Shown in pieces: positions 34,288-52,515 of a stretch of DNA of 64,000 nucleotides. Numbering within the stretch: position 1 is the stretch's first letter; each line of letters opens with the position of its first letter. The position numbers and the translations under genes were made by a program. The notes under the pieces are model-generated. The model saw only the letters and a list, made by a program, of their open reading frames with translations. It did not search any database and was not told the origin of the DNA. This stretch comes from a virus. Where the stretch lies: the IMG/VR virus record IMGVR_UViG_3300001525_000014, positions 1 to 64,000 of that record; one strand, written 5' to 3'.

Positions 34288-37200
34288 TTATTTATTACAG
34301 TCGTCCTATCTTCTCTTTCCGAGTTCTTTAAGGTCGTCTTTTATTTCCTATTCATTCTTTACTTTATAATCATTTTTAGAGAACGTCTTCTAATATACAG
34401 CTTTTATTGCATTTGCAGCTTTTAGGGCTTTATCGTATCCTACATACCCTTCTCTATCAACCCACTACCCGTTCTTGTTAACTTTGTAGTTTTGAATATT
34501 TCTAGTACCAACACCAGCAAACGATTTTGTTAATATTGGTGTATCTTCAACTTCAAATTTACCTGTTGATGAATTATACTAATACCAGCTCTCTGTTTTA
34601 AGATCATATACATGTACAGGTTTACCCTGTTTGATGCCAACCTAAACAGCCATATTAGTACCACCTTCTACAGCTTTCTGCGAACTAGTTATATTCGCTA
34701 CAGCAAATACACCATCAGACTTATCTACCTAATAGAAGTCTCTTGCAAGTAATTCTCCACCAATATTATAAGGCAACTCTCTTCCAGTTAACTGCTTTAT
34801 CTACTCTCTTGCATAGTTAGATTGTTCGTGAGTAATTGGGAGAGGCTTAACGTTTTTATCCCTGAGTGTTTTAGACATATTCTGGTTATCTATAGGTCTA
34901 AAATGGTTTATTTTTGTTAAGCCAAACGTTCTACCTATAACATCCCAATAAGTATCGCCACCATAAGCTCCTCCAGAATTAATTGTGTAATCTTGTGGAT
35001 TACCCTGCTATTTGTTGTACAAAGATATAGATTTAAGATAATCCCTCAATGTGGTCATGTATCGATTTGGCTCTAATGCTTTCAATTCAAATTCATTAGC
35101 TTCATGCCAATGGTAATCGCCCCAGTCTGTTCCTGTAATAAAATATTTGCCATCTTTGTATTTAATAGCATATTTAGAAGACCCATACCTTTTGGTTATG
35201 GTATATCTTAAAACGTTATCTCCATCAATTGTGCTATTTTCAAAATCCTTTAACTTATCAGGCTTTACTGGAAATTTATCATACTCTATTTTCTACTCTG
35301 GCTCTGTTCTAGTAAACGCATTATCCTTTAATGATCCATCCTCATTATAATAATTAAGCATCTTATCAGAATTATGATGAGCATAACAATACATACAACT
35401 AGATGCACAGTTAGAATTATACTTTAGAACATCAACTTTGCCACCATAGCAGGTACAAAGTTTACGCTGTTTATTATTATCTTCACCTTTATCTTCTATA
35501 TGCGTACCAAGGATGTTATTAACCTAATCTACAGACAAGCATCCCTATTTGCTTATTCCAGGAATTACTCCAGGTTCAGCACAAGTAGATAATTTAACTC
35601 CATACTTATTTGCTATCTATAACATCTTTTCGGATACACCTTTGACTATTTCTGGTTTAGCATTAGGCTTAAACTCTCCATTAGGAAGCTTCTCATACCC
35701 ATTCTTTTCGTAGTCATAGCCTAAGTTTTTCATAAATATAGAAGTGGTGCGATAATAGTCCATTACTGAGAATTTAACGTTCTTTATTCCTAATTCGGAT
35801 GCTCGCTTAATAAGTGCTTCAACATCTTTAATCTTTGTAACACCAGGAATAATAGGATCAATTCTCAATGTAACCATCTTAGGATCAAGACCTTGCTTAA
35901 TAAACTTTCCTACACGCTCAATCATATCCTACCACTTCATAACACCAGGCTCCCACTTAGTAGCACCAAGAGTAGTTATACTAAAGTGAATAATCTTAGG
36001 CTTTTGAATACTAAGAATTCTTCTCATTGGAAGACCATCATGCTTAGTTATAATATACATAGCATCCATATCGTTAGCAGTAAGAGTGTTTCCTCTATAA
36101 TCCTTCACTGTTGTTTTACCACTAAAGAAACCCTCAAGCTGTTTAGCAAAGAAAGCCGGGTCAGTCTTTTCGGAAGCCACAGCTATTCTCGGCTATTTAT
36201 CATTACCAGTAAATGGGTGTAATGCAAGAATTTCTTCATTAGTAAGAATTGTGTTAGGAGAACTTATGGTCTTCTAAGCATGCTAGAATGATACATTGTG
36301 CGCATTCTTGTGGTCAGTACTTACATATTTAGCCAAATCAACGGTCTTGTCATATAAGTATTTAAATAGCTGAGGCGTACGTTGTTCTGTAATCTAAGAA
36401 ATCTTGCCATTAGATAAACCAGTAGAAGGTAAATATATCTTTCTGTATTTACCCGTATCCCACTCATCCTTAATAGCCTAGAATTCGGCATCTATAACCT
36501 TTTTAAACTCTTCTATATCAGAATCATTCCATCTACCAGCATCTCTCGTTCTACCAGTTAAGGGATCGTACCAATGCTGTGTAGACACAGGCATCGCGTT
36601 ATCCATTCCTCTGATTATAGCAGCTGTAGTATTGGGGAACATCTTGCCAAGTCCATATGTCCTAGCATACTTACTGTCATTACTTATCGGGTTTTTACCA
36701 GATGTCCTGTTCGTGTTGTCACCAAATACATATAATACATCAGGATTATCATTAACCTCCTATCTAGTCCAATTACCTGGATGATATTCAATCTTTCGTT
36801 CAGCTGATTTAGGTAAAGATGGATTTTCTATATCACCAGTATAAGGATTAGCTACAGGAACACTAGATATAACAATAGCGGTCTTTCTTGGTCTAGTTAG
36901 AGCTGTATAAATAAGCTCAGACTTCTCTTGATTTGATGTAGCTGATGTGCCCATTATATCCTTCTCGTCTACTACAACTATATCGTATGTAGAACCCTAA
37001 GATTTATGGGCTGTTATAGCATAACCAAAGTCAATGTCTGCATAACGTCCTTTATACTCCCAGAATTCTTGCCAAGCTTGCCTCTTTAATATTCTATTGG
37101 TCTATCTCTTAGCCTTAGAAGCAAGTTCCTATAGCTTCTGATTATATAGATCAATATCGTTTCTAGAAACAACCTATATAACACAATCTTTTTGTTCATT

Positions 37201-52200: not shown

Positions 52201-52515
52201 ACTAAATCCTCTATTGTTGTCTAGATAGCTTTCCGCCTTCTTTAACCTGTCGTAATATTTAGACGCAGCCTTCGTTTCCTGATCTTCTTTGTTAAGTGAT
52301 TTAGACACATTTACATAATCTTTGTATCCCTTGTTAATAATAGACTAGGTCGGAGATGTACTCTGATATTTAGCTAAATTGCTTCTAAATTTATTTGTTA
52401 CCCTACTGTACGGCGTACTATTATCACGTCTTATGTATCTAATAGGGTCATAAGTACTGCCTTCTGATCCCCAAGGGATTATATTAGGGCTTACGTTCTT
52501 TGTTTTATTTGCCAT
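34288..52515 (-). CDS. giant multidomain late protein (6,075 aa with TAG as sense): HExxH motif, crAss-type virion RNAP DxDxD motif, SF1 helicase, DUF1848-like domain, SLOG-like domain
   Basis: All 25 listed - strand track fragments on this gene's frame, from 35617..35925 to 50542..50889, are in frame 0 and end in TAG. A line-by-line hand scan of frame 0 found no TAA or TGA between the ATG at 52515 (an upstream in-frame TAA lies at 52541) and the TAA at 34288-34290, with about 124 in-frame TAG. Confidence 0.75.
34560..34990 (-). other. SLOG-like (DprA/DUF2493/YpsA-type) Rossmann domain at the C-terminus of the giant protein
   Basis: INSGGAYGGDTYWD ... DGVFAVANITSSQKAVEGGTNMAVQVGIKQGKPVHVYD. 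Confidence 0.4.
35371..36200 (-). other. DUF1848-like domain inside the giant protein
   Basis: SEKTDPAFF..., RIDPIIPG, FSVMDYY, STCAEP, GCLSVD, and a terminal QRKLCTCYGGKVDVLKYNSNCASSCMYCYAHH Cys cluster, matching the DUF1848 layout as I recall it. Confidence 0.6.
36940..38240 (-). other. SF1 (RecD/Dda/Pif1-like) helicase domain inside the giant protein
   Basis: Walker A EGKAGTGKTT (38137-38163), Walker B-like LLVIDEASM, and AITAHKS[TAG]GSTYD with the TAG at 36997-36999. Confidence 0.7.
40735..40749 (-). other. DFDID (DxDxD) candidate catalytic metal-binding motif of a two-barrel (DPBB) RNA polymerase
   Basis: The reverse complement is GAC TTC GAT ATT GAT. Context ...REFTKVTGSDFDIDKLYLASLAYD... 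Confidence 0.55.
45520..45534 (-). other. HEAFH (HExxH) motif in the giant protein
   Basis: The reverse complement of 45520-45534 is CAC GAG GCA TTT CAT. Context VVDGVQYHEAFHRVLELLL. Confidence 0.5.

Follow-up and report, generated by a model that had tools for sequence, protein, structure and literature searches.

A TAG-recoded 6,075-codon open reading frame in a crAss-like phage contig and its probable place among the virion RNA polymerase giants of Suoliviridae

The question raised by this locus is whether more than 18 kb of viral DNA can encode one single protein, and if so, by which genetic code and of which kind. The locus lies on the minus strand of a stretch of 64,000 nucleotides (nt), positions 1 to 64,000 of the IMG/VR record IMGVR_UViG_3300001525_000014, hereafter called the window. 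An earlier examination of the letters, referred to here as the sequence-only reading, had proposed a single open reading frame (ORF) of 6,075 codons with about 124 in-frame TAG codons and neither TAA nor TGA. A triplet count shows that this description is exact: the 18,228 nt from 52515 to 34288, reverse-complemented, start with ATG, continue for 6,075 sense codons and end with TAA at 34290-34288, with exactly 124 TAG, no TGA and no TAA except the terminal one. A computed translation with TAG read as glutamine (Gln), which had been suggested as a check, likewise gave an open frame without a premature TAA or TGA, and the predicted product has a mass of 689 kDa. The region is one genuine ORF of a gut crAss-like phage in which TAG is a sense codon. 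It is very probably the orthologue of the giant virion RNA polymerase (RNAP) gene of the Suoliviridae, the delta crAss-like phages, and thus represents a family trait which has already been annotated and described.

The assertion that such a frame cannot stay open by chance holds. From the base composition of the strand, 353 in-frame TAA and TGA codons are predicted, while none was observed before the terminal TAA. In 200 shuffles, the mean number of these codons was 355 and the minimum 311, and the log10 probability of a frame without them is about -158. The two remaining frames contain between 35 and 134 TAA and TGA codons per 1,000 codons. For TAG, 124 observed codons compare with 128 predicted by composition, and TAG is therefore used freely and without avoidance. 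The flanking junctions are as tight as had been stated, with 5 nt on either side: the TAA of the upstream neighbour (52523-52521) is separated by this distance from the ATG at 52515, and the terminal TAA from the ATG at 34282 of a 1,827-codon gene. The start codon is kept in all four close relatives, which are IMG/VR contigs of approximately 90-93 % identity (L007-L010). A comparison of gene boundaries with related genomes, also suggested beforehand, revealed no conserved true stops or starts at the TAG positions. Compared to L008, 69-87 % of the codon differences are synonymous in each tile of 500 codons, and the final tile of 75 codons contains synonymous differences only. Since the differences are mostly synonymous in all tiles, they suggest purifying selection across the whole ORF.

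The meaning of TAG can be read from the codons that replace it. Summed over the pairwise comparisons with the four close relatives, TAG codons of the window are aligned with TAG in 263 cases, with CAG in 94 and with CAA in 68, while each other codon occurs at most 8 times and neither TAA nor TGA was found opposite a window TAG in a single case. The reverse comparison, starting from the TAG codons of the relatives, gave the same picture. In the alignment with the distant, standard-code phage cr118_1, Gln is enriched about four-fold at TAG positions, and TAG provides 124 of the 325 Gln codons of the giant ORF. Based on its exchange with CAG and CAA in the relatives, TAG is assigned to glutamine in the minus-strand late block, which corresponds to genetic code 15. 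This reading of TAG has been proven by metaproteomics in crAss-like phages, Suoliviridae included (Peters 2022, PMC9523058), and is summarised in a review (PMC10136315).

The recoding is restricted to one part of the window. With TAG as a sense codon, long ORFs cover 98 % of the window, compared to 38 % under the standard code. Long ORFs containing TAG are confined to the minus strand at 28.8-64 kb, and every one of them terminates in TAA. The plus-strand ORFs at 1-28.8 kb have no in-frame TAG and encode a DnaB-like helicase and AAA ATPases, and are therefore regarded as the replication block. The code changes at about 28.8 kb, at the meeting point of the convergent replication (plus-strand) and virion (minus-strand) blocks, and the GC skew also switches its sign there. 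The last plus-strand ORF (28233-28793) ends in TAG, 6 nt before the stop of the convergent gene, and readthrough of this TAG would result in an overlap of about 100 nt with that gene. For this reason, TAG probably still acts as a stop in the early genes, where 5 of the 24 long ORFs end in TAG, whereas all late genes end in TAA. A standard-code early block without in-frame TAG, followed by a TAG-dense late block in which TAG exchanges with CAA and CAG, is shared with the code-15 late blocks described for crAss-like and other gut phages (PMC7886860, PMC9523058).

Membership in a known gene family is indicated by similarity, architecture and gene order. A tblastn search with the middle third of the giant protein matched 80 phage records, the best of which belong to the Crassvirales family Suoliviridae. 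Every Suoliviridae reference genome examined holds one giant coding sequence at this place, with annotated lengths between 4,328 and 6,386 amino acids (aa; Table 1). These RefSeq giants are orthologous to the one in the window over its whole length, at 23-32 % identity, and likewise have the conserved HExxH and DFDID motifs. The gene order is also the same: the giant is preceded by the gene of a 'virion structural protein' (about 1,500 aa) and two to three smaller genes, and is followed by one for a product of about 1,400-2,300 aa, beyond which the replication genes lie on the opposite strand. The proteins that flank the giant in the window are orthologous to those of the reference genomes. 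Five of the six Suoliviridae giants that were checked by codon contain 37-74 in-frame TAG codons. The sixth, from cr118_1, has none in 4,946 codons, and the long frame is therefore independently shown to be real. The giant of the window differs from the RefSeq giants in its larger number of TAG codons (124) and in its own order of tail domains.

At the DNA level, megablast of the giant ORF against 50,697 phage records gave no match, and it therefore represents a new lineage. The most similar sequences are found in IMG/VR contigs without annotation and among Logan/ENA proteins, at about 88-93 % identity, and include a collinear protein of 6,000 aa (P0095) which is 88 % identical. When 1.84 billion representative proteins were searched with aa 2261-2394, the region of the HExxH motif, 110 clusters were retrieved, P0095 among them. 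Of these, 74 reach a length of 3,000 aa or more, 60 reach 4,000 and 30 reach 5,000, with a maximum of 6,581 aa; a separate protein-homology search with the HExxH region found no match. The sequence-only reading had implied that a product of this size is exceptional. This view cannot be maintained, given the giant coding sequences in all Suoliviridae references examined and a review that lists a crAss RNAP gene of 'up to ~6000 aa' as a hallmark (PMC10136315). The giant is a new lineage's copy of a known gene family, and the fusion is a trait of the whole family. Nothing is thereby changed in what is known of crAss-like phages, and the main value of the result lies in correct annotation, as the standard code breaks the 18-kb gene into more than 100 fragments. 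Such fragments, with lengths of 470-1,286 aa, are present in public protein sets. Reading the locus with code 15 yields a clean example of a Suoliviridae giant cargo gene. Points of interest to specialists are the invariant motif at the module junction, the reshuffled tail, and a nearly complete reassignment that is implied although no suppressor tRNA is present in the 64 kb.

The middle third of the protein is an RNAP module of the type of phi14:2 gp66, a protein of 2,180 aa which is named gp077 in record KC821624. A profile of the region aa 3481-4320 with its public homologues matched PDB entry 6vr4_A with an E-value of 2.7e-85. A second profile, of aa 2250-4700, covered residues 129-2101 of gp077 (E 6e-86), and the module is therefore placed at about aa 2234-4698. 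Profiles were needed here since a single-sequence PDB search with the RNAP region returned nothing. The DFDID motif is kept in all Suoliviridae giants, and 77 TAG codons precede it in the window. The RNAP module and gp66 (PDB 6VR4; Drobysheva et al. 2021, cited in PMC10172136) are collinear over gp66 residues 129-2101. They also share an identical TGSDFDIDK catalytic context and the same place in the virion gene block. However, gp66 is a separate protein without an HExxH motif, whereas the RNAP of the window is embedded in an ORF of 6,075 aa; the product is indeed far larger than the virion RNAPs of roughly 2,000 aa with which it had been compared beforehand. Judging from collinear homology alone, the module is predicted to contain two double-psi beta-barrel domains. 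A TAG followed by an ATG within this module had been put forward as a possible site of internal initiation, with a spacing of seven nucleotides that is actually nine. As an internal start or gene boundary the site was rejected, because L007 has CAG at this TAG and the region is collinear with the single gp66 chain.

The N-terminal module is more difficult to assign. Pfam and PHROGs searches with aa 1-4300 yielded nothing significant, and tblastn with the N-terminal module matched Oafivirinae relatives only. A crude hydropathy scan of the module revealed no transmembrane-like segment, and a role as a membrane channel therefore gains no support from that scan. A hidden Markov model (HMM) of the module found nothing among the phi14:2 proteins, and profile-profile comparison was required. 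With hhalign, two collinear matches to phi14:2 gp078 were obtained, with probabilities of 94 % (E 1.1e-7) and 74 %, while the controls reached 0.2 % (reversed template) and 0.3 % (RNAP-region profile). In phi14:2, gp078 is a separate virion protein of 1,797 aa whose gene lies directly upstream of the RNAP gene, and gp076-gp082 are marked as structural by tandem mass spectrometry in GenBank record KC821624. Counted from the gene that serves as synteny anchor (Table 1), the order is gp081, gp080, gp079, gp078, gp077 and gp076 in phi14:2, and three small genes, the giant and the 1,827-aa gene in the window. Due to this shared order, the giant sits in the place of gp078 and gp077 together. The 1,827-codon gene (28799..34282) is the last of the virion and cargo block. 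The idea that the ORF fuses proteins which are usually separate thus stands with respect to the gp078-like part joined to the RNAP, the additional C-terminal enzymes and the agreeing gene order, but not with respect to its being unusual. Some members of the phi14:2 gp078 family (P0051, P0062) carry PF18760, the ADP-ribosyltransferase domain typical of polyvalent proteins.

The HExxH block is located about 95 aa into the RNAP module, after the junction with the gp078-like segment. The motif itself, HEAFH at aa 2328-2332 (45520-45534, minus strand), is the only HExxH of the whole ORF and lies 2.7 kb from the TAG and ATG discussed above, so that the mention of two HExxH motifs near that site was mistaken. 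An invariant glutamate, Glu 2367 (45415-45417), follows 39 residues downstream. Across 11 Suoliviridae giants and 25 diverse public homologues, no variation was observed at H2328, E2329, H2332 and E2367. Pfam assigned the block to no peptidase family at E-values up to 1, including MPTase-PolyVal. The 13 PDB profile matches are all below the threshold (E 0.15-0.83), and 10 of them are zinc metalloproteases aligned on the motif, such as FtsH, YME1 and Zmp1/Pro-Pro endopeptidase. A single-sequence AlphaFold model of aa 2261-2394 was unusable, with a predicted local distance difference test (pLDDT) score of 53. The best match of the block profile to phi14:2, which is non-significant, is the HEIMH region of gp076 (residues 233-339, probability 11.7 %, E 0.0025), a protein encoded downstream of the RNAP gene (L017, 10997-15262, minus strand). 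If this match is real, the motif is found on a different cargo protein in the family of phi14:2. In a public protein of 422 aa (P0151), a Zeta-toxin/AAA_33 kinase domain is joined to the HExxH block described here, outside any giant.

The C-terminal tail (aa 4699-6075) consists of an SF1 helicase, DUF7831, DUF1848 and a DprA-like domain. The last of these accounts for the RefSeq product name of the orthologues in cr130_1 and cr109_1. A single-sequence PDB search with the C-terminal 859 aa found nothing. The segment in which DUF1848 lies, about 410 aa long (aa 5423-5831, window 35023-36249), is variable: it is cleanly absent in L007 and L008, disrupted by a frameshift or overlapping ORFs in L010, diverged in P0095, and present in the distant cr272_1. 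Furthermore, L010 and P0095 share an insertion of 161 aa near the C-terminus. The tails of the RefSeq giants contain different sets of domains (Table 1). In cr130_1 and cr272_1, the DprA-like call is based on a collinear GGAYG...GGT motif and, for cr272_1, additionally on a Pfam match below the cut-off. The NADAR matches in both tails adjoin DUF7831 and reach 32.9 and 34.8 bits, just under the Pfam cut-off of 35.1. NADAR is an ADP-ribose-processing family, and its position beside DUF7831 would be compatible with injected counter-defence enzymes.

Two known systems resemble this arrangement. The polyvalent proteins of phages and conjugative elements, which include the N4-like virion RNAP proteins, also combine several unrelated enzyme domains in one polypeptide encoded among virion genes. 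Their set of domains varies, and release of the parts by autoprocessing through a motif of metallopeptidase type has been proposed (Iyer et al. 2017, PMC5512222). However, the MPTase-PolyVal Pfam domain was not detected in the giant of the window, and its polymerase is predicted to be of the two-barrel crAss type, unlike the single-subunit N4-like RNAP. In PhicrAss001, the RNAP-associated giants gp47, gp49 and gp50 (262, 155 and 277 kDa) are encoded beside structural genes as in the window, but as three separate polypeptides instead of one ORF; this likeness is drawn from their published description (Bayfield et al. 2023, PMC10172136). These cargo proteins were detected in virions, and their ejection ahead of the DNA in a partly unfolded state has been suggested (PMC10172136).

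Table 1. Features of the giant ORF and its surroundings in the window, and giant proteins of Suoliviridae reference genomes
Feature	Residues or length	Window position	Strand	Details
Giant ORF	6,075 sense codons	34288..52515	-	ATG; sense codons include 124 TAG (Gln); TAA
N-terminal module	aa 1-2233	45817..52515	-	boundary from profile comparisons
gp078-like segment	aa 1877-2215	45871..46887	-	hhalign against phi14:2 gp078 residues 997-1268
Virion RNAP module, phi14:2 gp66 type	aa 2234-4698	38422..45816	-	profile matches
Conserved HExxH...E block	aa 2286-2440	45196..45660	-	candidate gluzincin metallopeptidase
TAG...ATG site		TAG 42783-42781, 9 nt, in-frame ATG 42771-42769	-	inside RNAP module
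DFDID catalytic motif (DxDxD)	aa 3923-3927	40735..40749	-	aligned to TGSDFDIDKMY of 6vr4
SF1 (Dda/RecD/Pif1-like) helicase	aa 4707-5217	36865..38397	-	PHROG 325 E 5.8e-66; Pfam AAA_30, AAA_19, UvrD_C_2, PIF1
DUF7831	aa 5247-5389	36349..36777	-	Pfam PF25176 E 2.5e-11, above cut-off
DUF1848 (Cys-rich, CxxxCxxC-like)	aa 5462-5712	35380..36132	-	Pfam PF08902 E 4.3e-23
DprA-like domain (Rossmann, Smf/DprA-type)	aa 5840-5986	34558..34998	-	PHROG 768 E 1.4e-9
Four upstream genes		52521..61384	-	same TAG-recoded block
Synteny anchor	1,558 aa	56708-61384	-	phi14:2 gp082 E 3.9e-28; homologue of RefSeq 'virion structural protein'
Downstream gene	1,827 codons	28799..34282	-	41 in-frame TAG; orthologue of cr130_1 gp80 (E 2.9e-105) and cr272_1 gp22 (E 1.8e-61)
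cr272_1 giant	6,386 aa			RefSeq YP_010113476.1
cr130_1 giant	5,801 aa			RefSeq YP_010113266.1, 'DprA-like DNA recombination-mediator protein'
cr7_1 giant	5,443 aa			RefSeq
cr118_1 giant	4,946 aa			RefSeq YP_010110531.1, 'exonuclease V'
cr50_1 giant	4,774 aa			RefSeq
cr1_1 giant	4,551 aa			RefSeq
cr52_1 giant	4,464 aa			RefSeq
cr10_1 giant	4,460 aa			RefSeq
cr6_1 giant	4,400 aa			RefSeq
cr109_1 giant	4,328 aa			RefSeq, product name DprA-like
cr130_1 tail				DprA-like, NADAR, DUF7831
cr272_1 tail				NADAR, DUF7831, DUF1848, DprA-like
cr50_1 and cr118_1 tails				helicase
cr109_1 tail				DprA-like by RefSeq product name only

Other explanations of the locus differ considerably in their plausibility. 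Under the standard code, the TAG codons would be true stops and the region would consist of about 125 short ORFs or a decayed pseudogene. The region does fragment under code 11, and public gene callers list the pieces of 470-1,286 aa mentioned above. Nevertheless, this explanation is refuted by the lack of TAA and TGA in 6,075 codons (P ~1e-158), the exchange of TAG with CAA and CAG in the relatives, the mostly synonymous differences from L008 along the full length, and a profile match to the single-chain phi14:2 RNAP that runs across many TAG codons. Equally refuted is an assembly or sequencing artefact that fused neighbouring genes through a lost stop, in favour of which nothing was found. 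The same continuous architecture occurs in 10 RefSeq genomes, and no fewer than 30 independent clusters of public proteins with 5,000 aa or more share it. It is uninterrupted in L008 and L009, and split only by an intron in L007 or by a tail frameshift in L010. Partial suppression of leaky TAG stops would instead mostly produce a ladder of N-terminal fragments, and translation would seldom or never reach the distal RNAP and tail. The missing suppressor tRNA(CUA) in the window fits this explanation, as do the reviews mentioning recoded Suoliviridae without a detectable suppressor (PMC10136315). It is very improbable, however, since the distal tiles covering the RNAP and the tail are as mostly synonymous as the proximal ones, TAG occurs at the frequency predicted by composition and supplies 124 of 325 Gln codons, and DFDID is strictly conserved although it lies behind 77 TAG codons. 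Moreover, the standard-code relative cr118_1 has the same architecture with zero TAG, and proteomics found Gln at TAG in related phages (PMC9523058).

A further alternative is that the single ORF gives rise to several mature proteins. The N-terminal module, the RNAP and the C-terminal enzymes would be cut apart in the capsid or after ejection, either by the protein's own HExxH...E motif or by another protease, and internal initiation may add shorter products. Bacteroidota are not known to have usable ribosome-binding signals. Cleavage would refine the best explanation, not exclude it. It would be in line with an HExxH motif and a Glu 39 residues on which are invariant in all giants and lie close to the junction of the gp078-like and RNAP parts, with zinc metalloproteases as 10 of the 13 weak PDB matches, and with the production of the corresponding parts as separate proteins by phi14:2 and PhicrAss001; autoprocessing of this kind was also proposed for polyvalent proteins (PMC5512222). 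Conversely, the block has no significant Pfam or PDB match and a model with a pLDDT of 53, no cleavage site is known, and an effector protease or a metal site of a non-protease could also account for the motif. Processing of this kind is therefore a serious possibility, albeit one with less than an even chance.

Several observations weigh against the assignment of the ORF as a continuously translated Suoliviridae virion RNAP giant. The homology to gp078 extends over only about 280 aligned columns at about 10 % identity, and the zincin fold of the HExxH block is a candidate assignment. With a per-codon readthrough of e, the full-length yield is e^124, which amounts to 29 % at 0.99 and 0.2 % at 0.95, so that the reassignment of TAG would have to be nearly complete when the giant gene is translated. 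Neither Rfam nor ARAGORN detected a tRNA with a CUA anticodon anywhere in the 64-kb window, although 35 kb of it are TAG-recoded, and none was found in the loci of the relatives examined. A release-factor gene was not seen in the window either. The locus differs in both respects from the code-15 blocks of Yutin 2021 and Peters 2022. However, recoded Suoliviridae without a detectable suppressor tRNA are mentioned in reviews (PMC10136315), and a phage-encoded suppressor tRNA(CUA) is not an obligatory feature of this group. In the sole tRNA of the window (5963-6043, plus strand; Rfam 49.6 bits), the acceptor, D and T arms are normal. The anticodon arm has a 5-bp stem (GCAGT/ACTGC) and an aberrant 11-nt loop, GACTGTATCAG, without a CTA anticodon. 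ARAGORN assigns no identity to this tRNA, and two pattern scans of IMG/VR revealed no homologues.

The open and conserved frame, TAG as Gln, the RNAP homology with an intact catalytic motif, the mosaic of additional domains and the position in the virion block are all direct observations at this locus. The subsequent steps are proposed by analogy, because the homologous proteins of phi14:2 and PhicrAss001 were found in virions. Synthesis of the giant would take place late, after the switch to decoding TAG as Gln, and the protein would be packaged as capsid cargo that enters the host by ejection, either before the DNA or together with it. In the host cell, the protein would transcribe the early genes, which are written in the standard code, and its attached domains may act on nucleic acids or host defences. 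A more far-reaching and rather unlikely version is that the giant serves as an ejected delivery vehicle, in which the HExxH...E motif cuts the chain after ejection and thereby frees the RNAP and a set of fast-changing counter-defence enzymes (helicase, DUF7831, DUF1848 and DprA-like, with NADAR in relatives) that act at the very start of infection. If this were true, an arms race still under way would be recorded in the way the DUF1848 segment has been gained, lost or degraded among relatives of about 90 % identity. The need to read through 124 consecutive TAG codons would also time the making of cargo strictly to the code switch.

In two genera, the giant gene is interrupted. In L007 and cr131_1, one and the same position, following the first D of DFDID, is occupied by homologous inserts of about 0.8-0.9 kb that split it (L007 ~12170-13064; L002, the cr131_1 locus, ~19525-20437). 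The group I intron family RF00028 of Rfam matches both ends of each insert, with 49.8 and 26.6 bits in L007 and 44.9 and 33.4 bits in cr131_1, compared to a gathering score of 50, and with E-values from 2e-11 to 2e-4. The insert of L007 holds fragments of a LAGLIDADG-like ORF, and that of cr131_1 an annotated ORF of 242 aa. Judging from these matches, the inserts are probably group I introns, and the splits would then probably be introns inside DFDID and not stops at TAG. This agrees with the legend of Fig. 3 in Yutin et al. 2021, where a LAGLIDADG endonuclease encoded by an intron is mentioned for the block of transcription genes (PMC7886860). The giant gene of the window has no intron.

Two further RNA elements were detected in the plus-strand part of the window. 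A permuted, two-piece transfer-messenger RNA (tmRNA) gene in the standard-code early block was predicted by two independent methods. Rfam RF04321 matched at 8374-8600 (plus strand) with 57.5 bits compared to a gathering score of 47, and ARAGORN reported a 'Permuted' tmRNA at 8344-8691, in which the tag peptide GNVNNIVDYTCVA is terminated by TAA. The presence of an RNA for ribosome rescue may merit attention in a phage with a reassigned stop codon. The other element is a RAGATH-1 hammerhead ribozyme at 2588-2668 (plus strand), with 75.4 bits compared to a gathering score of 56.3.

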